A DNA stretch of 64,000 nucleotides from a virus. Under the pieces are notes generated by a model that had not been told where the DNA came from, did not search any database, and worked only from the letters and a program-made list of their open reading frames with translations. The position numbers and the translations under genes are program-made. Where the stretch lies: the IMG/VR virus record IMGVR_UViG_3300046463_000164, one strand, 5' to 3'. Positions 1 to 63,184 of the stretch are shown here, piece by piece; position 1 is the stretch's first letter; each line of letters begins with the position of its first letter.

Positions 1-123
1 AAAATCGTGAAGACCCGAACGGTTCCCTAGACCCATCCAAACGTTCTTACCGTCGATAACGATTCTATCGCCTTCGTTTTTCGCGTAATCGATAATAACC
101 CGCTTAAGTTGAGCCGCTTTCAT
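1..123 (-). CDS. hypothetical early protein, runs off window start (MKAAQLKRVIIDYAKNEG...)
   Basis: ATG at 123 preceded by GGAG RBS and promoter module; open to position 1. Confidence 0.7.
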   Translation of the reverse strand, partial: MKAAQLKRVIIDYAKNEGDRIVIDGKNVWMGLGNRSGLHDF

Positions 124-202
124 TTTTGTTCTCCGCTTCGTTTCGATAAAGGAATTATACCGGAAACCTAGGAAAAACAAAATTGGAATTTTCTATCAAC
201 TC

Positions 203-361
203 TCAAGCCGCGATAGAGGTAATCTTATCGTGCGGCCTAACGCGAACCGTCGCGGTTTCCCGAAAGACTCGCGCGGCGTCCGACTCGTTTAGAGAACGGA
301 CTAGCCCCGCGTAACGCCCGTTCAAGAATACTCGATAACTTTTATAAATTTGATGTATCAT
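203..361 (-). CDS. 52-aa hypothetical early protein (MIHQIYKSYRVFLNGRYAG...)
   Basis: manual translation; GGAG RBS; resembles 623-766 product. Confidence 0.65.
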   Translation of the reverse strand: MIHQIYKSYRVFLNGRYAGLVRSLNESDAARVFRETATVRVRPHDKITSIAA

Positions 362-518
362 TTTAATAGTTCTCCCTCTCAGAACAAAACCATATTCTAT
401 TAGGAGAAACCCGGCTAATTACATTTTACTATCGCATTTCAGAACCCATAGAAAATGTCTATCAGACGAGTAAAATAAAAGCCCGCGTAAGCGGGCTTTC
501 GCTTCGGGTTAATCCCGA

Positions 519-620
519 TTACCGGAAACGGAAAATGAAGGTATGAATCGCCTGATCGAGTAGGGATAGAAGCGCCCCCACAAAAAGCGTACCCGCGACC
601 CCTAGAACGATAGCTTCCAT
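519..620 (-). CDS. 33-aa membrane peptide (MEAIVLGVAGTLFVGALLSLLDQAIHTFIFRFR)
   Basis: manual translation; hydrophobic; directly downstream of 623-766. Confidence 0.55.
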   Translation of the reverse strand: MEAIVLGVAGTLFVGALLSLLDQAIHTFIFRFR

Positions 621-622
621 CT

Positions 623-766
623 TTAATCCTTTCGCGCCGTAAGGTTATCGAACTTCGTTACCGTCTTACTATTACACCACAAAAACGCGCTAATCGCTTC
701 CCGCTCGCTAGTCGCGCCAATTTTACCCTTAAAAACCCCGTCTACAAAAATCGAAAACCGCTTCAT
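623..766 (-). CDS. 47-aa hypothetical early protein (MKRFSIFVDGVFKG...)
   Basis: internal ATG of ORF track 623..811 with GGAG RBS. Confidence 0.65.
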   Translation of the reverse strand: MKRFSIFVDGVFKGKIGATSEREAISAFLWCNSKTVTKFDNLTARKD

Positions 767-927
767 TTCCGTCCGTCTCCGGTAAGACTTACTATAAAAG
801 GTTAGGTGCAACGGAAATAATTATAGTACGTTACCGAACGAAGAAGATCATACCCCTCCATTTCAGTCGGGAAAGTAATTGTTACCGACTACCGGACGTT
901 AAAAAGCCCGCTTTCGCGGGCTTTTCT

Positions 928-1239
928 TTATCTACTACCGCTAATATAAGGGAAAACGATAAAATATTTACTAACGGGATATTCCGCGTATCGTTTAACC
1001 GCGCTAGTAAGCGCTCCGCGAGTCGTAATACAACCCGTACTTTCCGCGCCAAAATTCGCCGGTCCCCCGAAAAATCTTACAGCGACCTCCGAAATTTTGT
1101 CCGGGTCTTCCGTAAAGAAAATTAGGGTAATCCCTTTCTCGCCGTTCTTTAGCGCTTCGGTTTCCGCTTCGCGTATCGCCTTAACTAACGCGGTCTTACC
1201 GTTCGGGGTTAATTCGTTTCCGTACTTATTCGTAATCAT
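928..1239 (-). CDS. hypothetical early protein, 103 aa (MITNKYG...)
   Basis: ATG at 1239 after GGAG RBS and TATAAT; terminator downstream. Confidence 0.75.
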   Translation of the reverse strand: MITNKYGNELTPNGKTALVKAIREAETEALKNGEKGITLIFFTEDPDKISEVAVRFFGGPANFGAESTGCITTRGALTSAVKRYAEYPVSKYFIVFPYISGSR

Positions 1240-1382
1240 TTTCCAACTCCGCGTTAATTCGATAAAGGAATTATACGCGAAACCGCGATAAAACAAAATA
1301 GTATTTTTCTATCAGAATTGAAGTTTCAATAGATTTTAACTATCGACAAGATAAAATAAAAGCCCGCTTTCGCGGGCTTCGT

Positions 1383-1571
1383 CTAGCGGGGTTTAGCCTT
1401 TCGCCCGCGTCTTTTCGGTCGTCCTATCCCGTTTTCGTCGCTAAACCGCGATACGAGAATAAGCGCCGCTAAATCGGGTTTCTCCGTAACGTAATCCGCG
1501 AACGAAAGCCGATTTCTAGCGTCTAGCCGATATTTCCGATAGGCTAGAAAAATTTCCGTACTAGTTTGCAT
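1383..1571 (-). CDS. hypothetical basic protein, 62 aa (MQTSTEIF...)
   Basis: ORF track; coupled to upstream small ORF. Confidence 0.65.
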   Translation of the reverse strand: MQTSTEIFLAYRKYRLDARNRLSFADYVTEKPDLAALILVSRFSDENGIGRPKRRGRKAKPR

Positions 1572-1660
1572 TATTCCTTCCAATTTTTAATATATCGGAA
1601 AGCGTCGAGCGCCGCGAAGCCTTCCGCGCGAAGCCAACGATAGTATTCTAGGCGTTTCAT
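1571..1660 (-). CDS. 29-aa peptide (MKRLEYYRWLRAEGFAALDAFRYIKNWKE)
   Basis: manual translation; GGAG RBS; TAATG overlap with next gene. Confidence 0.55.
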   Translation of the reverse strand: MKRLEYYRWLRAEGFAALDAFRYIKNWKE

Positions 1661-2023
1661 TTTCAACTCCGTTTAACTAGACTCTAGTATAACGGGTTTC
1701 TTTCCAAAAAGGGGCATACCCTTATAAACCGTATGGATATGTTCGTCTAGTCCGATAGCGCCGCCGATAGGCGAAACCCGCGTTAAGCGGGCTAGATGAG
1801 CCGCTACGGGCTTCGCTACGCGTTCCCTAGGGCTAGTAGCTCTCCCCATAACAGCCCGTTATAGGCTCATCTAGACATTTACCTATCGGCTTATAATTCT
1901 TGATAGGTAAAAGCTATTGGCTCGTGGTCTGGCGGATTAGACGACCCGCGTTTGCGACCGTTAGAGCTATTATACTTGAAATTGTAAAAAAGTAAAGCCC
2001 CGAAAGGGGCTTTTTCTAACTCC

Positions 2024-2113
2024 TTAGTAGCTAACCGGATAATAGACGAGAAAACCGATCGTAGCGAAACAAGCGATAGCGAAAGCTAATAGAACTTTCG
2101 AGCCGATAGTCAT
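2024..2113 (-). CDS. 29-aa membrane peptide (MTIGSKVLLAFAIACFATIGFLVYYPVSY)
   Basis: manual translation; single hydrophobic segment; terminator follows. Confidence 0.55.
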   Translation of the reverse strand: MTIGSKVLLAFAIACFATIGFLVYYPVSY

Positions 2114-2305
2114 TTTTTCCCGCTTCGGGAAAACCGGGTTAAACGAGCGATAATTTTCCACTTTTTCTACTCCGCGTTAATTCGATAAAGGAATTATACC
2201 CGAAAACGCGAATCTACAAAATTGTAAATTTCTATTGAAATTGTAAACCGATAGAAATTGTCTATCAAGTAGACGATAAAAAACCCGCTTACGCGGGCTT
2301 TCGGG

Positions 2306-2608
2306 TTAGCCTTCTTCGCTATCGGGTTCCCCGTAAGCGGGGAATTCTACTCCGTAGCGACTCTTAAGAATCTCCCGTATCTCGTCTAGCGCCTTTAGCG
2401 TCGCGTTAAACGCGTTCGTAGCCGCTTCTCCGTTCGCTTTAAACTCCGACGATACCGCCGAATTAAAACGGATAATACCGTTAGAGCGGTTAAAATCGAT
2501 TTCCGCGTAAACGTTTAGCGCGTTAACTAGAGTCTTAGCGAGCGCCGAAAGGTTAAGCGCCGCGCGTTCGTTATCGTTCTTAATAATCGCCGTATCCGCT
2601 GCATTCAT
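2306..2608 (-). CDS. hypothetical early protein, 100 aa
   Basis: ORF track; RBS, promoter module and terminator. Confidence 0.8.
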   Translation of the reverse strand: MNAADTAIIKNDNERAALNLSALAKTLVNALNVYAEIDFNRSNGIIRFNSAVSSEFKANGEAATNAFNATLKALDEIREILKSRYGVEFPAYGEPDSEEG

Positions 2609-2750
2609 TTTTCTACTCCGGGTTAATTTCGATATAAGGATTCTAACGGATAACGCGGGAATTCCAAAATTGTAAATTTCTATCGGTTTACAATTTCAAT
2701 AGAAATTGCCTATCAAGAGGGTAAAATAAAAGCCCCTTTCGGGGCTTCGC

Positions 2751-2951
2751 TTATTCCGCTTCGTAAGCCTTAAACGCCGTATCTACTACCCGCGTTATTT
2801 CTTCCCGTCCGAACGCTTCGAAAAGAGCCCGCGTAATCCCGGTTTCCTCTAGTAGCGAGTTTAAAAGGTTTAGCCTATCGTCTATAGAAAGGTCTTTAAT
2901 ACTAATCTCTACCTTAACCGCGCGGATAATCGAGCTATAACGGACTTCCAT
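2751..2951 (-). CDS. hypothetical early protein, 66 aa
   Basis: ORF track; coupled to upstream ORF. Confidence 0.7.
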   Translation of the reverse strand: MEVRYSSIIRAVKVEISIKDLSIDDRLNLLNSLLEETGITRALFEAFGREEITRVVDTAFKAYEAE

Positions 2952-3055
2952 TATTTTTCCCCTTTAAGGAATTTTCGGATTTTAACGCTACGCGAACCGG
3001 ACCCCGCGAGCGAGAGTAAAGCGAAAAGAACGGCGAATAAAATTAGGGCTTTCAA
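2951..3055 (-). CDS. 34-aa membrane peptide (TTG start, MKALILFAVLFALLSLAG...)
   Basis: TTG after GGAG RBS; hydrophobic N-terminus. Confidence 0.55.
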   Translation of the reverse strand: MKALILFAVLFALLSLAGSGSRSVKIRKFLKGEK

Positions 3056-3211
3056 TTTCTCACTCCGGTTTAGATTCGATATAAGGATTATAGACGAAGC
3101 CCGCGAAATTCCAAAATTGTAAATTTCTATCAATAATTATTTCCAATAGAAATTGACTATCGCACAGACGTAAAAAAGCCCGCGTTAAGCGGGCTTCGTC
3201 TATCGGGCTTA

Positions 3212-3682
3212 TTAGCCCCGCGATTCGAGATAATCTAACGCGATAATACGCGCGGTTTCCTCTTTAGGCGCGGTTTTAAGTTTCGCTACCGTTACGGAAC
3301 CGGCCGCGAAAAGCGCCGTAACCTTAATAACGTATTCCCCGTCTTTCGGTTCGGACGAAACGAGATAATTAGCGCCTAATAGGAAAGAAAACGATTCTTT
3401 ACGGGGTTCCGGTTTCTTTACTTCGGGGATTTTAGCCGCCTTTAGGTACGCTTCGATATCTTCCCGCGAGTCGTCCGAAAATTCCGCGTTATAGCTTTTA
3501 AGCCATTTCGTAATATCTTCGCTATCGTTACTTCCCGCGTCGTCGATTAATTCGCCGTTCGCGTCTTTAAAATCGATATTAAAGCGGAAATAACCGTTAT
3601 AGATAACCGCGATAACGTTATCCGAAATTTTACCCGTAAGCGTAATTTTTTCCGGGTTAAAAACAAATTTCACCGCTTTCAT
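3212..3682 (-). CDS. hypothetical early protein, 156 aa
   Basis: ORF track; RBS, promoter module, terminator. Confidence 0.8.
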   Translation of the reverse strand: MKAVKFVFNPEKITLTGKISDNVIAVIYNGYFRFNIDFKDANGELIDDAGSNDSEDITKWLKSYNAEFSDDSREDIEAYLKAAKIPEVKKPEPRKESFSFLLGANYLVSSEPKDGEYVIKVTALFAAGSVTVAKLKTAPKEETARIIALDYLESRG

Positions 3683-3842
3683 TTTCGCTACTCCGTTTAG
3701 ATTCGATATAAGGATTCTAACCTAATCCCTATAGATTCCAAAATTGTAATTTTCTATCGTCTTACAATTTCAATAGCAATTGCCTATCATATAGACGAAG
3801 AAAAACCCGCTTTCGCGGGTTCGTTTCTAAGGTAACTTCCCG

Positions 3843-4178
3843 TTACCGGTAATCGTCCCGGTTCGCTTTACGCTTAATCTCGCCTAGGAATAGTTTAACG
3901 GCAACGCTTTCCGTATCGATTTTAAGCCCGAACGCTTCGAACGCTCTAACGACTTCGGGGAATTCCCGAAAATATAACGGCGCGATAAGGTCGATACTAT
4001 CGTCGTCGTTTTCGGGGAAAATCGAAACGATATAAGCGCGCCTACCGTCGCGGGGCCGTTTCGTTGCGTCGTGAATACAATAATAGAATCCGCGTTCCGG
4101 GATAGAATAGCTTACGAGAGTAGGCGTAAAATCGTAGACTTCGCCTTTCGGGTCGAATTCGAATTTTAGCGTCTGCAT
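3843..4178 (-). CDS. hypothetical early protein, 111 aa
   Basis: ORF track; RBS, promoter module, terminator. Confidence 0.8.
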   Translation of the reverse strand: MQTLKFEFDPKGEVYDFTPTLVSYSIPERGFYYCIHDATKRPRDGRRAYIVSIFPENDDDSIDLIAPLYFREFPEVVRAFEAFGLKIDTESVAVKLFLGEIKRKANRDDYR

Positions 4179-4347
4179 TTATTAACTCCGTTTAGTTTCG
4201 ATATAAGGATTATAGACGAAGCCCGCGAAATTCCAAAATTGTAAATTTCTATCAACCCCTGAAATCAATTAACAGAGCCTATCGGATAAAGCGAACGGAC
4301 GTAAAAAAGCCCGCGTAAGCGGGCTTCTCTTTTAAAATCGGGGCTTC

Positions 4348-4854
4348 TTAATATCCCCCGCGAATCTCGATTTTAGCGGGGTTCGCGGGATTACGATAAA
4401 TCTCGTAATAAAGCGCGTCGCTAGTTCCCGCTTCTAAGCCTAAATCGTCGTCCTCCGTAATCTCGTAAAGAACGCGGATTTCTAGGCCCGCTACTTTAAC
4501 GCCGTCGATTACGAACGTTTTACGGAAAATATCGGTAATATCGTATTTCGAAAGCGAGCCGCCGATTTCGGCTTTTACGAGTTTAGTAACCGTTTCCGCT
4601 TCTTTAGCCGCGTTACGGGAAAGCTCCGTATAATAACGGTCCGAATTAGCGAAACCGATATTTTCGCGCCGTTTCTCGTTAAGGCGCTCCGCTTTACGTT
4701 CTTCGGCGCGTTCCGCTTTTTCTTTCGGCGTAAGACGGCGCGAACGGTTCGCGCTACGTTCTTCGGCTTCGCGCGCTTCTACGGCTTCGCTAGGCGAAAG
4801 CGAACGGCAAAGCACGCCATTAGGCAAACGACGAAAAACGAAAGCAGCATTCAT
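4348..4854 (-). CDS. hypothetical early protein, 168 aa (MNAAFVF...)
   Basis: ATG at 4854 after GGAG RBS; charged helical middle. Confidence 0.8.
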   Translation of the reverse strand: MNAAFVFRRLPNGVLCRSLSPSEAVEAREAEERSANRSRRLTPKEKAERAEERKAERLNEKRRENIGFANSDRYYTELSRNAAKEAETVTKLVKAEIGGSLSKYDITDIFRKTFVIDGVKVAGLEIRVLYEITEDDDLGLEAGTSDALYYEIYRNPANPAKIEIRGGY

Positions 4855-5197
4855 TTCAATCTCCAGCGAATTAGTTACGGTAAGGAAAGTATAACCGAAT
4901 CCGCGAGAATCCAAAATTGTAAATTTCTATCGGTTATACAATTTCAATAGGAATTGGCTATTTCATCGCTAGGGCGTCTAAACGGGCTTCTAACGGGTTC
5001 GCGCGGTTTAGGCTACCTATTCCCTTAACGATAGTCCGGAACCCCTCTAGCGGGCTTTAAAACGCGTCTAAACCGCTTTACGCCGTCTAGCCTAGGTCTA
5101 GCCCGCGTCGAACCGATAGGAATTGTCTATTAGAAATTGTAGACGATAGATTTTGACTATCAAGTAGGCGAAAGAAAAGCCCCTTTCGGGGCTTCGC

Positions 5198-5689
5198 TTA
5201 AACCGGTTTAAAACGGTATTTTTCGACTAGGGCGTTAAACTCGCTTTCGCTTTCGATTCGGTTTAGGTCGGATAGGAAAGGGTAATAATCGAACGCGATA
5301 GAGTAACCGGGTTTTACTTCGTCCGTTCTTTCGAAAACCTTTAGCGAGTAACCCGCGTCGAGTTCTAGACTAAAGTAATCTTCGGTAAAATCCGCGATAA
5401 AGCGGATATCGAAACCGGGAATACTTTTAACGCCTAGGCGTTTATCGCCGTTTCCGTTAATCGGGGTAGTTTCTAGCTCGTTTTCCGTAATAATAACGTA
5501 ATAATCGCCTTCGAAATTTTCCGAAAACGCCTTTTCGAATTCCGCGAAAGTCTTAACCCCGTTAAAATCTAGATTATTACGCGGGTTAGCGATAGCGTTA
5601 TTAATCGCGTCTAGCTCGGTTTCGCCCGATCCTAGCGCGTCCCCCGCGATATCGTTTAAACCGGCCGAAAAGTAACGAATCGTTTTCAA
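5198..5689 (-). CDS. hypothetical acidic early protein, 163 aa (TTG start)
   Basis: AGGAG RBS; terminator downstream. Confidence 0.8.
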   Translation of the reverse strand: MKTIRYFSAGLNDIAGDALGSGETELDAINNAIANPRNNLDFNGVKTFAEFEKAFSENFEGDYYVIITENELETTPINGNGDKRLGVKSIPGFDIRFIADFTEDYFSLELDAGYSLKVFERTDEVKPGYSIAFDYYPFLSDLNRIESESEFNALVEKYRFKPV

Positions 5690-5699
5690 AATTCTCTCC

Positions 5700-5813
5700 T
5701 TAGAACGAGAAACGGGAAGCGAGCGTAAGCCCGATAGTTTCCGCGAAAATAAGAACCGCGAGGAACTTAACCGCGAGCGAGTCGCGCGTAAGGTAATACT
5801 TAATCGATTCCAA
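5700..5813 (-). CDS. 37-aa membrane peptide (TTG start, MESIKYYLTRDSLAVKFLAVLIF...)
   Basis: manual translation; same AGGAGAGAATT-TTG leader as next gene. Confidence 0.6.
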   Translation of the reverse strand: MESIKYYLTRDSLAVKFLAVLIFAETIGLTLASRFSF

Positions 5814-5971
5814 AATTCTCTCCTTAAGGACTAGACTCTAGTATAGACGAAAACCCGAGAATTCCAAAATTGTAATTTTCTATCAATTTTGAAGTTCCAA
5901 TAGGAAAATACAATCTTGAAAACGCGTCGGTTTCCCTTATACTAGCCTTACCTTAACGAACTAACCCGGAG

Positions 5972-6166
5972 TTGAAAATGCGCGTAAACCTGATCGATGA
6001 TTTCGGTAACGAAATTCGCCCGGTTCTAGACCTTAACGCGGCTACGGTTTTCCGCTTTATCCGCTTCGCGTTAGACGGCGCGATAGAAGGGATAGCGAGC
6101 GGGGTTATTAAGGGCGGGGACGCGGACGAATCGAGTCTAAAGTATTTCGGGCTAGTCGCCGTATAA
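5972..6166 (+). CDS. hypothetical protein, the only rightward gene of the early array
   Basis: TTGAAA-17-TATACT promoter at about 5916-5943, GGAG RBS, terminator 6187-6209. Confidence 0.7.
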   Translation: MKMRVNLIDDFGNEIRPVLDLNAATVFRFIRFALDGAIEGIASGVIKGGDADESSLKYFGLVAV

Positions 6167-6281
6167 AGAAAGCCCGTTTAAAGAGAAGCCCGCGAAAGCG
6201 GGCTTTTTTACGTCCGTCGAAAACGGAATAGGAAAAGAAAAAGCCCCTTTCGGGGCTTCGGGTCTATAACGCGCGGGGTTT

Positions 6282-6626
6282 TTACTTATCCGCCTTAACT
6301 TCGAACCGTTCGCCGGTTTCGCTATTCGCTTCGAGCTTTTCGGCTTCGTCCTTCGCTTCCCGATACGAAAGAAGCGAAATAACCTTTTCGCCCGTCGCGT
6401 AGTTAATAACCGAATAAGTCGATTCTTCCGGACGCTCCGCGAAAACCGCGTTAAGGTTCTTTACTTCGCGAGCGATAGCGAGTAGCTCGTTAAACTCGTA
6501 ATAGCCCGTCATTTTTACCGCGTAGCCTTCGTTATCCCGGACTAGCTCGGTATCGCCCGAAAGCGTACCGTCGAACGAAAGGTTAGGGCGGGCGTTAAGG
6601 ATATCTTGAACCGTGAAAGTTGCCAT
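6282..6626 (-). CDS. hypothetical early protein, 114 aa
   Basis: ORF track; RBS, promoter module, terminator. Confidence 0.8.
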   Translation of the reverse strand: MATFTVQDILNARPNLSFDGTLSGDTELVRDNEGYAVKMTGYYEFNELLAIAREVKNLNAVFAERPEESTYSVINYATGEKVISLLSYREAKDEAEKLEANSETGERFEVKADK

Positions 6627-6976
6627 TTTTCTCTACTCCGTTTGCGTTTCGTTAAAGTAAGGCTAGTTTACCCGATAAGCGCCAATTTCCCCTAGGAATA
6701 TCCGATTGTAATTTTCTATCAACTCTGAATATCAATAGAGAATTGCTATTTCAGCGCTAACCTAGCTAGATGAGCCGCTATGAGGTTTCGTCGCGTTCCG
6801 ATAGTCGCCTATAGCCTAGAGCCTAAAAGCCCGCTAGGGAACGTATAGGAAAGCCGGTTCTCTCCTATAGCGTAATCGCCCTATAGCCTAGAAAGCCCCG
6901 ATTCTCTCCCGTCTAGCTCCGTGCCGGTGGCCCGCGCGTATAGAGCCTATCTCCCTAGAGAAGTAAAGAACAATTA

Positions 6977-7235
6977 GCCTAGTAGTATTGGTACCTGGAT
7001 AAGCTCCCCCTTATACTACGTCTTGAAGGGAAAGTCTAGTCCAATATCACCCCCAACTCCAAGCGAGTCCGGAACGCCTTACCGGAGCTACGCTACCTAT
7101 AAGGGAAAACTATCGAAAAATGCGTGTGATAGTCCGTTGTAGCCTAGTAGTATTGGTACCTGGCTAAACCTAGGATAGACTAAAATTATCAAAATATGTG
7201 TGTGATAGTCGGTTGTAGCCTAGTAGTATTGGTAC
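6977..7235 (+). repeat. three direct copies of GCCTAGTAGTATTGGTAC
   Basis: starts at 6977, 7142, 7218; the last two share a longer upstream context (GTGTGATAGTC.GTTGTA). Confidence 0.9.
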
Positions 7236-8453
7236 TAGTGTATATAATACTATAGTAGCGGAGCCTAGTACCAATGGTTCTACCCTATAGAAATTGACTA
7301 TGAACGGTGTAAATGTGATAGATCACTCAACTATCCCTAGGGGAGAATTGATATGGAAACACTATTGACTATCAACTTCAAGCCACGATAGGAATTGTCT
7401 ATGGATAGTCCTAGCCTATTACCACAACTTTCCGAGAGCCTACGGCAATGTACTATCGATCCCGCCTGCCAATAGTCTTTCCCTATCCATAGCCCTAGCC
7501 TATCCAGGGTACCAACTCCGATAGGAAATATCAATCGATCCAGCTATAGGGGAAATCTATTGACTCATATTAGCTCTAGGGAAAACCTATCAATTTTCCG
7601 AACCTGTGAATTCCGAAAAAGTAAAGACATTTCGAAAATATTTCAATATAACCGAAAGCCGTAGAAAACGCCGATCAAAATCTAGGCGTCTACGTGAGCC
7701 GCTACGGGCTTTCTAGGGTGGGTCTAAGCTAGGATGGCGTGAGCTTCGTAGAATCCTCATAGGCTGAGTTTGGTATTTCTAGCCCCGTATAGCCTCTAGG
7801 TTCACATTCTCTCGTCTATAGGCTATAGGGATAGCGCCGCTAGGCGAGAAAGCCCGTAGCGAGCCTATACGAAAGCCTAGACACATTATTAAGCGGGACT
7901 ATCGACTATGCATATCGATAGGTAAATTTATCTTTACTTTTATAGAATTGAGGGCATCGATGTGTAACCCTATAGAGCGGAAGGTTATTCGAAAGTCTAG
8001 TTACATTTCTCTATAGGGATAGGCAAGTCGATAGGAAAATACAATTAGACTTTCTTTGCTAGTCGTGATCGAGAGATAGGTTTGGGCTATGGGCTGGACG
8101 ATGGTGATAGGAAAATACAACTAGACGGAATGTGAAAAGTCGTATAGGGGAAATTGCGGGTTCCCGGCGGTGGTGGGGCGTAGCTCACACAGTCTTATAC
8201 AAAGTTGATTTCAAAAATTGTCCACACCACGGTATCCAGAAAAATATTGAGCCTGGGGGGGGTATTGTCAGAAAAATGTGAGGGTGGGGTATTGGAAATA
8301 AAAAATGTGGGGTGGTGGGCTAGATATGTTTCCAACTCTTTCTTGTCACTATGGCCCTAATGTTGGGTACGGTGACATTAAACCTTTTCGCCAAATCATT
8401 CTTATGGGTGCCTGCGGCAAACTCTTGCCTTATCTCTAAAACAATCTCCGCAG

Positions 8454-8660
8454 TCAGTTTCGACATCCCATGTCCTTCCCCTTTGCTTTGTCGTATATCT
8501 TCTGCTCATACTTGTGCTTTAGGATAGCGAGCTCAGTCTTGGCAGCCTTCTGATTCTCATACTTGTTATTCCTAGCAATCGTCACCGCATCGTTATACCG
8601 GTTCTCGGCCTCTAGGATTATTTGTTGACAAGCTTTTACCCGTTCGCTATTTGTACTCAT
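8454..8660 (-). CDS. hypothetical protein
   Basis: ORF track; last gene of the leftward run. Confidence 0.6.
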   Translation of the reverse strand: MSTNSERVKACQQIILEAENRYNDAVTIARNNKYENQKAAKTELAILKHKYEQKIYDKAKGKDMGCRN

Positions 8661-8661
8661 A

Positions 8662-8805
8662 TCAATCCTGATAGACTGGTTTTGCTTCTTGTAACTCTAG
8701 GGCAAGCTTGTATCCCATATAGGCATTATCCGCTGCGTCGAACCCGTATTGATATCCCTTATCCTTCAGCAGCTGCCAAAACTCATCAAACGATAATTCT
8801 TTCAT
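8662..8805 (-). CDS. 47-aa hypothetical protein (MKELSFDEFWQ...)
   Basis: manual translation; fills gap with GAGGG RBS. Confidence 0.55.
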   Translation of the reverse strand: MKELSFDEFWQLLKDKGYQYGFDAADNAYMGYKLALELQEAKPVYQD

Positions 8806-8811
8806 ATCCCT

Positions 8812-9327
8812 CTATCCTGTAAACAATGATTCAAATAACTCGTCCCTCAATCTAGTCCTCACCCGTCCCATTACTTGACCTAACAGGTTCAGACCCTTCC
8901 AATTCTTCGGGTCCGCTGCTTCAGGACACACGGTAATTCCGACTCCCCAAATGCTGTCGTAGGGAGAAGCCTCAACGAATATCTTATTGTCTGTCTTCAG
9001 CAACTGGTATCTGAGTTCATCGTTCTGCTTGAACTTCAGATAGACCGCATGCTCCATTATCTGTTCCCGGCCTTGCTCCCAGAAGAACTGATTGAAGTTT
9101 GCGATTGACTTCCGTCCATAAGCCTTAGCATCCCTAGGATCAATGAAGTTGGCGATGATATCCATCTCAGCCCTATTCCTATTGAAGTAATAGGCTTTCA
9201 GCGCGATGAACAATCCCTCGCTGTGGTGGAACTCGGTTCCGTCAAACATAATCCTACAAGGATGAAAATTGCTATAGATACTCTCCTTGCTAAAGAACAG
9301 AATCTTGTCATCTATCTCTAGTTGCAA
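8812..9327 (-). CDS. NADAR (YbiA-like) family ADP-ribosyl/N-glycosidase
   Basis: SNF, KF.QN..L...LL.T, VEASPYD.IWG.G and G.NLLG..M..VR motifs. Confidence 0.9.
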   Translation of the reverse strand: MQLEIDDKILFFSKESIYSNFHPCRIMFDGTEFHHSEGLFIALKAYYFNRNRAEMDIIANFIDPRDAKAYGRKSIANFNQFFWEQGREQIMEHAVYLKFKQNDELRYQLLKTDNKIFVEASPYDSIWGVGITVCPEAADPKNWKGLNLLGQVMGRVRTRLRDELFESLFTG

Positions 9328-9654
9328 CTATAGTTCCTCCCACTTCATTCTATCAACAGCCTTTTCCCAATCACTATAGATTGCGTCACCGTATAACTCA
9401 AAGAACCAGCAATAGCTAGTCGCAACCTGCACATAACTCCACAGAAACCAACCTTTCTTCTCTAGGTGATATTTGCCATCTTGTTTCCTGATGCGAAACT
9501 TCCTTGATGGACTATACATCGGCCATTCTGGTTCAGGCGGTTTTGGTGGCCAAGGATATGGCTTTCTAGGGCCGACAAAGGTGGGTCTCGCCTTCCTTGG
9601 CTTTCCTTCGATAATCTCGACCCTTCCATCCGGATATAGAATCTTTACGGGCAT
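9328..9654 (-). CDS. hypothetical Pro/Trp-rich protein
   Basis: ORF track, internal ATG. Confidence 0.6.
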   Translation of the reverse strand: MPVKILYPDGRVEIIEGKPRKARPTFVGPRKPYPWPPKPPEPEWPMYSPSRKFRIRKQDGKYHLEKKGWFLWSYVQVATSYCWFFELYGDAIYSDWEKAVDRMKWEEL

Positions 9655-9914
9655 AATGGGGCTGGCACTCCAAAGTCGTGATCGCTCCAAGGCTTATGGC
9701 ATACATCACATAAGTCATTCGGCGTATTGATCATAAATTCTAGATGGGCACGTTCGGTCTTACGCTCTGCCTCAATTTCGGCTAGCAGCGCTTCACGCTC
9801 ATTCTCTATAATCTCTAGGAGCAAATCAATTAGTTCCAGACTTGCCGCTCTAGCCTTCTGTATCTCAAGATCGTATTCAATCCGAGCCTTAAGCTTCAGC
9901 TTGTGCTTTCTCAT
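9645..9914 (-). CDS. hypothetical coiled-coil protein with C-terminal CxxC...H...C
   Basis: ORF track. Confidence 0.6.
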   Translation of the reverse strand: MRKHKLKLKARIEYDLEIQKARAASLELIDLLLEIIENEREALLAEIEAERKTERAHLEFMINTPNDLCDVCHKPWSDHDFGVPAPLCP

Positions 9915-10172
9915 TCATATACCCAATTCTCAAAATACTCGTCAACCATACGCGTAGAGCAACCGACAAAATTCATCAGTCGCTTTAGCAAACAACATCA
10001 TTCCGTGAATCTGCTTATACAGCTTTTTCTTGTGTTTCCGCATTCTTCCTTTCCTTATCACAAGCTTCAGTATGCAGTATCCAACAACTGCACTTCCAAG
10101 TATCCCCTCTTGAAGCTCTATCGGCTTCATTTTCCTGGCGATACCATTTGGCGTCATCCTCCATCCAGTTAA

Positions 10173-10370
10173 TCATTTCACATACCGCCGCCTGAGCAGT
10201 TCAATCCTACCGTAATGGAGCCTCACACAAGCTGCCCTGAGAGGTTTCAATAATTCTTCCTTCTCGGGTCCATTGGGCAGCTCTAGGATAGGATTGACCT
10301 CTTTTACAATCATACGCAGAATCTCATTGGATTCTTCCCACAATTCATCCCAGGTCATACTAAACCCCAT
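10173..10370 (-). CDS. hypothetical protein
   Basis: ORF track; tightly packed operon. Confidence 0.6.
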   Translation of the reverse strand: MGFSMTWDELWEESNEILRMIVKEVNPILELPNGPEKEELLKPLRAACVRLHYGRIELLRRRYVK

Positions 10371-10557
10371 TTAGACCAGGATTTGGATATTCAAATCCTT
10401 CAGTCTTGTTCATAGCATAGGCAATTTTGTGTGCGTCTAAAGAGTTGGAACTACGACAGACTTCACGACCTTGCCCTTCAAGGGATGTGTCAATGACTAG
10501 ATATTTCATCCCGAATAAAGAACTAATGACCATATACTTCACAGGAACTGCACTCAC
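10360..10557 (-). CDS. hypothetical protein
   Basis: ORF track; overlaps neighbours. Confidence 0.6.
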   Translation of the reverse strand: MSAVPVKYMVISSLFGMKYLVIDTSLEGQGREVCRSSNSLDAHKIAYAMNKTEGFEYPNPGLNGV

Positions 10558-63109: not shown

Positions 63110-63184
63110 TGGTCCCGCGTCAAGGAATCGAACCTCATTCTGACGGTGAACATACCGCCCATCCTACCAATAAACGAACGCGGG
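63110..63184 (-). tRNA. atypical tRNA with 8-nt anticodon loop (TATGTTCA)
   Basis: perfect acceptor stem, canonical T-arm, CCA. Confidence 0.65.

Follow-up and report, generated by a model that had tools for sequence, protein, structure and literature searches.

Neither operator arrays nor conserved non-coding hubs are new as a kind of feature. The operator banks of temperate phages and plasmids, represented by lambda OL/OR, P22 Arc/Mnt and the P4 ori/crr iterons, consist of multiple short dyad sites. A different type of region is the injection-stop signal of phage T5 (iss; Repeat Region 3, located in the left terminal repeat), in which conserved untranslated repeats of ~1.2 kb carry paired boxes for a host factor and lie beside poorly conserved pre-early genes (Davison, bioRxiv 10.1101/866236). 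In the so-called PeSL cassettes of T4-type phages, small novel ORFs are flanked by a stem-loop terminator and an early sigma-70-like promoter, both of them conserved (PMC2839356, PMC4122927). The dyad ATAG-N7-CTAT has been published as the half-motif of OxyR, whose operator reads ATAG-N7-CTAT-N7-ATAG-N7-CTAT (PMC5720770, PMC8787470). Finally, restriction analysis located the thymidine hypermodification of Acinetobacter phage SH-Ab 15599 mainly at TG (PMC13458397), and the same approach gave the same preference for the hypermodified thymidine of the phages M6, ViI and PhiW-14 (PMC6449724).

Here, we analyze a gene-free gap of 1.7 kb (6630-8330) in the window, i.e. in the whole 64-kb stretch of phage DNA under study. 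The gap is a real and conserved non-coding control region that heads a block of early genes. It resembles the operator banks of lambda, P22 and P4 in its helically phased short dyads, its two clusters a few hundred bp apart and its position at an operon junction, but the phage is virulent and T4-like, and its sites recur in unrelated phages; the two complete box-bearing genomes have thymidine-hypermodification enzymes alone in common. The likeness to the T5 iss is also considerable: both regions comprise ~1.2-1.7 kb of untranslated DNA dense in direct and inverted repeats and palindromes, both contain short boxes paired 2-3 bp apart, and both are adjoined by small first-expressed genes, with neighbours that are not conserved. 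In T5, however, the boxes are DnaA boxes, whereas the dominant box here is ATAG-N7-CTAT. Moreover, T5 has its iss within a long terminal repeat, at a set distance from a physical end, whereas the assembled contigs examined here show no such end or repeat, and the gap belongs to a T4-type myovirus with a terminase of the gp16/gp17 type.

The phage and its early cassettes

The window is part of the genome of a large T4-like myovirus, with genes for a baseplate wedge protein, tail sheath, portal, gp23-type capsid protein, large terminase, gp46/47-type nuclease and RNA ligase as well as 18 tRNA genes. Its capsid protein is closest to those of Ralstonia phage RSP15 (63%), Delftia phage PhiW-14 (58%) and Acinetobacter phage SH-Ab 15599 (57%), followed by the ViI-like phages. 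Hypermodified thymidine occurs in several members of this group. The stretch is present in at least nine rhizosphere metagenome runs of 2023. Among 50,697 phage records no match was found either by megablast of positions 6000-9000 or by tblastn of one early-block protein. The cultured relatives RSP15, PhiW-14 and SH-Ab 15599 show no enrichment of the box, no TG/CA-poor block occurs in RSP15 and PhiW-14, and the loci around homologues of the 171-aa neighbour and of the RNA ligase contain neither arrays nor such a purge.

Positions 1-6630 are occupied by about ten one-gene cassettes on the minus strand, each of them with its own promoter and terminator. Along the transcribed strand the strong hairpin terminator of the previous unit is followed by Box B (GATAGnCAATTTCTAT), 15 nt, Box A (ATAGAAATTTACAAT), TTGGAA, 16 nt, TATAAT, a conserved leader, GGAG and finally ATG. 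This layout means that Box B and Box A are centred near -75 and -45, respectively. The pair of boxes, 30-31 bp apart, is found upstream of most of these sigma-70-like promoters. A profile search with the whole module returned ten leftward copies and one full rightward copy (5868-5974); in the gap a full match is confined to the promoter at its left end (Table 1), and elsewhere the box part alone matches. Exact-pattern scans of IMG/VR with the cassette promoter and with a 19-nt repeat gave no match, and the 88 matches of the cassette-promoter pattern in metagenome contigs were all single ones, none of them accompanied by a box array or a TG/CA-poor stretch.

The residual TG/CA dinucleotides of the early block are found in promoters and start codons, not in the transcribed bodies. 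Since the bulky thymine modification of the relatives sits at TG and the block is nearly free of TG/CA, this part of the genome is probably modification-poor. The composite of terminator and early promoter between small variable ORFs that is known from PeSLs is present in this flanking block, where the small novel ORFs left of the gap are arranged in the same manner. PeSLs have, however, not been described with upstream pairs of dyad boxes, nor with coding sequence free of TG/CA, nor with orphan boxes gathered in a separate 1.7-kb bank that heads the array, all of which are present here.

Content and composition of the gap

A previous, sequence-only reading of the window had described the interval 6630-8330 as free of credible ORFs, and indeed none longer than 65 aa was found there. 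Comparison with a syntenic relative (G005, see below) also revealed no conserved ORF: the translated matches cover identical stretches of conserved nucleotides in multiple frames and on either strand and therefore point to no hidden gene. The boxes ATAG-N7-CTAT/CAAT are located where that reading had placed them, including the CAAT variants at 7521 and 8031 and the tandem pairs with a 2-bp gap (7388/7405 and 7472/7489). Its statement that the boxes are not tied to genes agrees with about ten orphans, 15-bp dyads of the form (G)ATAG-N7-CTAT(C/G) that have no core promoter. As a correction, the box at 6735 is tied to a gene: together with a variant partner at 6705 it belongs to the promoter of the gene starting at 6626.

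Eight exact boxes start in the gap (at 6735, at 8076 and at the six positions given for the orphan array in Table 1), as compared to 0.12 expected. The abundance of palindromes, likewise noted before, was confirmed with 10 copies of CTATAG (1.6 expected) and 31 of CTAG (13 expected). All these expectations are derived from 500 dinucleotide-preserving shuffles of 6630-8330, none of which reached the observed values. In the window N7 is the sole enriched spacing, with 19 boxes versus 0-2 for each other spacing from 3 to 12, and all 19 exact boxes fall left of 8100, none being found in 8100-64000. The dyad ends ATAG and CTAT and the distance between them are fixed while the inner 7 bp vary freely, as is expected of a protein site. 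Three copies of the 18-mer GCCTAGTAGTATTGGTAC had also been reported; they were recovered at 6977, 7142 and 7218 and are embedded in larger repeats of 28 and 54 nt.

The G+C content of the gap is 0.43-0.48 throughout. The frequency of TG/CA returns to normal across it, as had been stated, and does so from left to right: per 100 nt there are 0 in the coding parts left of 6600, 4-9 within 6900-8100 and 11-16 from 8100 on. The TATAG(G) words were also considered as promoters of a phage polymerase but rejected, because they have no upstream consensus in common.

Table 1. Features of the gap from left to right in window coordinates (+ and -, strand; dot, no strand assigned)
Feature	Position	Strand	Evidence and details
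Promoter of the first TG/CA-free cassette (gene 6282-6626)	6640..6752	-	nhmmer with cassette-promoter profile (E 6.5e-18) and alignment; spacing to the -10 region atypical
Box B of this promoter	6735-6749		
Box A variant of this promoter	6705-19		ATTG..CTAT on the + strand
CTAG/CTATAG-rich segment	6760..6960	.	CCTATAGCCTAGA twice (6808, 6880); TG/CA 0 in 6800-6899; 16-17-nt word CTAGATGAGCCGCTA in common with 7690 and 1791
Three copies of TAGCCTAGTAGTATTGGTAC (6975, 7140, 7216)	6975..7243	+	Each with -35-like TTGGTA, then a -10-like hexamer at promoter-like spacing; 54-nt repeats 7106-7159 and 7182-7235 are 91% identical and 76 nt apart
Inverted repeat TTGGTACTAG / CTAGTACCAA around TATATAATACTATAG	7229..7274	.	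Repeat analysis and direct reading; reads as two putative sigma-70-like promoters, overlapping and face to face
Orphan box array	7287..7590	.	Exact 7287, 7388, 7405, 7472, 7489, 7546; one-mismatch 7351, 7521, 7576; two tandem pairs, no core promoter; denser counterpart in G005
A/T-rich word block kept in G005	7610..7680	.	AAAAGTAAAG..AAAATATT..ATATA.CCGAA..TAGAAAACG; alignment
Multibranch fold of ~200 nt (candidate structured RNA or DNA cruciform)	7681..7880	.	Closed by a perfect 15-bp inverted repeat 7700-7714 / 7847-7861; z -3.7 on +, -3.3 on -
Short words kept in G005	7925..8022	.	GATAGG..TTATCTTTACTTT, AAGGTTATTCGAAAGTCTAGT, CTATAGGGA
Two 21-nt repeats GATAGGAAAATACAAnTAGAC, 76 nt apart	8030..8126	+	Box A-like sites in + orientation (8030, 8106); exact box 8076-8090 between the repeats
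Best-conserved block (~125 nt, 75% identity to G005)	8075..8198	+	Box A-like site, CTAGAC, 16 nt, TATAGG; resembles a rightward-turned cassette promoter with a poor -10; small CGGG-YT-CCCG hairpin and G-rich tract after the promoter-like part
27-nt G-run/A-tract repeats	8255..8319	.	Directly follow the last gene of the leftward operon upstream, abutting its stop codon; poly-G run 8255-8262 differs in length among samples; unit kept in G005, there with exact DnaA-box matches

The same boxes in other phages

An IMG/VR scan for two boxes 2 bp apart recovered the contig G005 (170.7 kb), a circular assembly that shares synteny with the window right of the gap. At the same junction it has an ORF-free gap of 1.77 kb with 12 exact and 12 one-mismatch boxes, in which the 17- and 30-bp box spacings are kept together with the 125-nt block, several words, the G-run repeats and the abundance of CTATAG. 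The block left of this gap is half-purged (30-43 TG/CA per 500 nt vs 60-75 elsewhere), and only one of its proteins matches a protein of the window. Thus the array, its position and several other modules are retained in this diverged relative, but the adjacent genes are not. The early promoters of G005 are mostly without boxes, and a single one of the cassette type can be recognized. On this comparison, the gap array is the conserved feature, and the promoter-linked box pairs are specific to the lineage of the window.

Five other IMG/VR contigs with G+C contents of 0.40-0.60 contain arrays of 4-8 boxes with the same start-to-start distances (17, 26 and 30/31) and with the same extended consensus (G)ATAG-N7-(A)CTAT(C/G). 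In two contigs (G006 and G009) the small terminase gene is preceded by the array at a distance of 180-390 nt, and in a third (G008) the array is found ~360 nt upstream of an operon that ends in the large terminase gene. The complete 41.8-kb genome G007 has two four-box clusters that flank a small gene, with a primase-helicase operon on one side and the packaging genes on the other. The boxes precede the large terminase gene by ~1.5 kb, and the adjoining primase-helicase gene is of the DUF5906/DUF3854 type. The gene neighbouring the array in G009 encodes a D5-like DNA-binding domain. The location that is typical of pac or cos sites, adjoining or inside the small terminase gene, was found in G006, G008 and G009 but not in the window. 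For the arrays heading terminase operons in four of these contigs a packaging or terminus role is an equally good explanation.

The two complete box-bearing genomes, G005 and G007, share just three proteins, namely a 5-hmdU DNA kinase, a thymidylate-synthase-like enzyme and a protein with weak similarity to pyrimidine-dimer glycosylase, which we take to be the transferase of the hypermodification pathway. Among bacteria and archaea (185,579 genomes) the strict three-box pattern occurred only once. The arrays are therefore a feature of phages and not a common regulatory element of bacteria.

Possible roles of the box array

The reading that we favour, if tentatively, is that the gap combines an operator bank with an insulator and in this way controls the early block, because such a function accounts for the box pairs at promoters as well as for the orphans, for the retention of the gap at an operon junction and for the C-richness of its right edge. 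The boxes would be operators for a dimeric DNA-binding protein, bound as pairs of dimers on one face of the DNA three helical turns apart. The array would then represent a high-capacity bank for this protein that could nucleate or buffer its action on the early promoters or set the timing of this action. Among the three functions that had been proposed from the sequence, an array holding or sponging a box-binding regulator fits best, in view of the box pairs at most early promoters and of the orphan boxes, although the binder was not found. The right edge of the gap resembles a Rho-dependent terminator: the minus-strand RNA that follows the stop codon across the G-run/A-tract repeats is untranslated, C-rich and G-poor (39 G versus 14 C on the + strand of 8200-8320), and no hairpin-type (intrinsic) terminator is predicted there. 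This edge would stop transcription coming from the upstream operon, probably via Rho, and we propose that the early block is therefore read solely from its own promoters. A purely transcriptional interpretation is weakened by G005, because its early promoters mostly lack boxes while its array is conserved.

Candidates for the binder are a host factor with an OxyR-like half-site or an undetected small phage protein. Full-text literature matches for the ATAG-N7-CTAT motif were to OxyR only. The dyad is identical to that of OxyR and LysR-type operators, and the cassettes, with a weaker dyad beside the -35 and a stronger one upstream, recall the activation and recognition sites of LysR-type regulators. 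The OxyR dyads are, however, 7-10 bp apart, whereas the distances here are 2, 10-11 or 15-16 bp (17 and 30/31 from start to start, 26 in the other phages, with one pair only at 25). In addition, OxyR prefers ATAGnT at the inner positions while the boxes here read ATAGnC, and arrays of 8-24 boxes are unlike OxyR operators. Given this mismatch in dyad spacing and inner bases, we regard an OxyR-like protein of the host as a lead and not as a finding.

On the side of the phage, neither BLASTP nor phmmer revealed a box-binding protein shared among the array-bearing contigs, no regulator common to G005 and G007 was detectable, and both genomes are devoid of LysR-type (PF00126) and HU-type DNA-binding domains. 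A small protein that G007 and G008 share beside their arrays has no homologue in the window. The gap itself is adjoined by a 48-aa helix-turn-helix ORF (8320-8466), which matches DNA-binding domains of homing endonucleases as well as part of a longer ORF far away in G005. It is probably a homing-endonuclease remnant, which counts against it as box binder, and its apparent helix-turn-helix likeness to the array neighbour of G009 is not significant by BLASTP. The paper on a ParB-dependent thymine dioxygenase yielded no motif of relevance here.

Alternatively, the gap could be a cis-acting site of packaging start or end, or the edge of a long terminal repeat, which we regard as unlikely. The modification-poor early block would then enter the cell first, and the array could pause entry as in T5. 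This would agree with the arrays at the head of terminase or packaging operons in G006, G008 and G009 and near the large terminase gene of G007, and with a modest enrichment of DnaA boxes: three of the 11 exact ones in G005 lie within its gap, and three with one mismatch occur in the window (8131 on the minus strand, 8195 and 8218; range 8131-8226), where the gap contains no exact one. The T5 analogy, already drawn in the sequence-only reading, is fair as anatomy, since in both cases a conserved, repeat-dense untranslated region lies beside poorly conserved early genes, but genes of the A1/A2/dmp type were not found and six early-block proteins had no match in PHROG. Two-step entry is not known for contractile-tailed phages, which also counts against an entry boundary. 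Furthermore, the terminase genes of the window (43.9-46.3 kb) are of T4 type, 36 kb distant from the gap and without any box nearby, and box pairs at most early promoters would be unexpected of a packaging site. The assemblies give no sign of a physical end either. Logan contigs from four samples stop solely at the poly-G run and at internal repeats, those of independent samples breaking exactly at the 6975..7243 repeats, and the circular assembly of G005 is opened inside a gene 3 kb away from its gap.

A replication origin is unlikely as well, although the iteron-like arrays in two clusters might be seen as initiator sites and the promoter-like block 8107-8150 with its G-rich non-template DNA and the DnaA-like boxes mentioned above as a site of R-loop formation or unwinding. 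The conserved promoter-like block is followed by strong positive GC skew, and the primase-helicase gene beside the G007 clusters and the D5-like domain beside the G009 array would suit such a function. However, box pairs are also present at about ten separate early promoters, cumulative GC skew does not turn at the gap, either in the window or in the relative with a complete genome, and a clear AT-rich unwinding element is absent at the given G+C content. In addition, the -10-like TATAGG lacks the conserved final T, exact DnaA boxes are missing from the gap of the window, and no initiator gene is found near it.

A more far-reaching idea, which we hold to be quite improbable, unites the arrays as a shared cis-acting landmark of thymidine-hypermodifying phages that would mark a genome boundary for packaging and entry. 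In small phages this boundary would be the head of the terminase operon. Here it would be the head of the modification-free early block, where a protein of the host or the virion would hold or pause the incoming DNA and thereby let the unmodified early genes act first.

It is very doubtful that the gap mainly encodes non-coding RNA, such as the ~200-nt structured candidate at 7681-7880 or short transcripts of the TTGGTA repeats. The perfect 15-bp helix closes its multibranch fold over a long range, a strong hairpin (1792-1875, z -4.2) begins with a related 17-nt word, and promoter-like sites exist at 6988-7017 and 7229-7256. However, these promoter candidates are not followed by terminators, Rfam gave no match in the gap even at E 1, and the counterpart of the fold in G005 is weak (z -1.2 and -1.8), as is the two-sequence consensus fold. 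Most of the gap has z values between -1.6 and +2, folding being better than in shuffled sequence only at 7681-7880, 7880-8040 and 7120-7360. Scarcely credible, finally, is a functionless remnant of decayed early cassettes: TG/CA depletion in the gap is intermediate, partial promoter-derived pieces are strewn across it and cassette turnover is high, but G005, a relative with the same architecture, retains the position, size, array and spacing pattern of the gap along with several sequence blocks, while the neighbouring proteins have become unrecognizable, and the ends of the box dyads are preserved with variable inner bases. The roles weighed here are not mutually exclusive.

Among operator arrays and non-coding hubs the present region appears to be set apart by a dyad box shared among otherwise unrelated phages, by its location in front of an early block free of TG/CA and by the alternative position of such arrays at the head of terminase operons. 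Phages that hypermodify thymine still need their DNA to be read, replicated and packaged. The gap is the conserved hinge between a probably modification-poor early block and the rest of such a genome. The identity of the box binder would show how these phages start and insulate their first genes, and it would also give a handle on whether ordered entry or a fixed boundary is possible in a T4-like phage.

Composition of the early block and the phage tRNA genes

The dinucleotides TG and CA are essentially absent (0 per 100 nt in long runs) from the transcribed parts of the approximately ten early cassettes at positions 1-6630, the small one-gene units left of the ORF-free gap (6630-8330), and therefore the encoded proteins are nearly devoid of Met, Trp, Cys, His and Gln. 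What is left of TG and CA in this block resides in the -35 element (TTGGAA), in both promoter boxes and in the start codons. Among the 18 tRNAs of the phage, many decode triplets containing TG or CA, and these are the same codons that are absent from the early block. At 63110-63184 ARAGORN also reports an odd tRNA whose anticodon call has two bases.

Features of the early block, the right flank of the gap and the tRNA region
Feature	Position	Strand	Remarks
Perfect-stem hairpin, 84 nt	1792-1875		within 1788-1905; z -4.2
Rightward cassette promoter	5868-5974	+	E 3.9e-11
64-aa ORF	5972-6166	+	faced by the rightward promoter
48-aa helix-turn-helix ORF	8320-8466	-	matches the DNA-binding domains found in HNH homing endonucleases and in Mor-type activators
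tRNAs for TG/CA codons	58399-63608		Trp, Cys, His, Gln, Met (two), Leu-CAA, Thr-TGT, Pro-TGG

A divergent promoter pair and a hairpin

Two full cassette promoters are arranged divergently at 5839-5974, and the rightward one, which was outside the training set of the promoter profile, belongs to the sole rightward cassette of the early block. The hairpin lies downstream of a single box (ATAG-N7-CTAT dyad) at 1903, and a 17-nt word in it recurs in the gap at 6765 and 7695. A 58-aa ORF (1673-1849) overlaps the hairpin and differs from the other cassette proteins, so that 1788-1905 may represent a non-coding transcription unit.

Box arrays in other phages and the right edge of the gap

In the complete 41.8-kb phage G007 two clusters of four 17-bp palindromes each (GATAGTC-N3-GACTATC), 890 bp apart (L189 3507-4488, contig 9506-10487), lie on either side of a 129-aa gene whose product has an N-terminus rich in Ala, Pro and Lys. 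Its 149-aa homologue directly follows the box array of contig G008 (L183 8582-9031); no match to a protein family was obtained.

At the right edge of the gap a run of eight G (8254-8262) is one G longer in contigs from two of the four samples compared. The G-run repeat units of the syntenic relative G005 (L190 16900-17204, contig 167.6-167.9 kb) include exact DnaA-box matches (TTTTCCACA, TTTTGCACA). On the minus strand, one G run there can pair with a C run to give a hairpin with a T-rich tail after it. Since the sole G005 homologue of the helix-turn-helix ORF is part of a longer ORF (137.65-138.16 kb), the ORF beside the gap is probably an endonuclease remnant.
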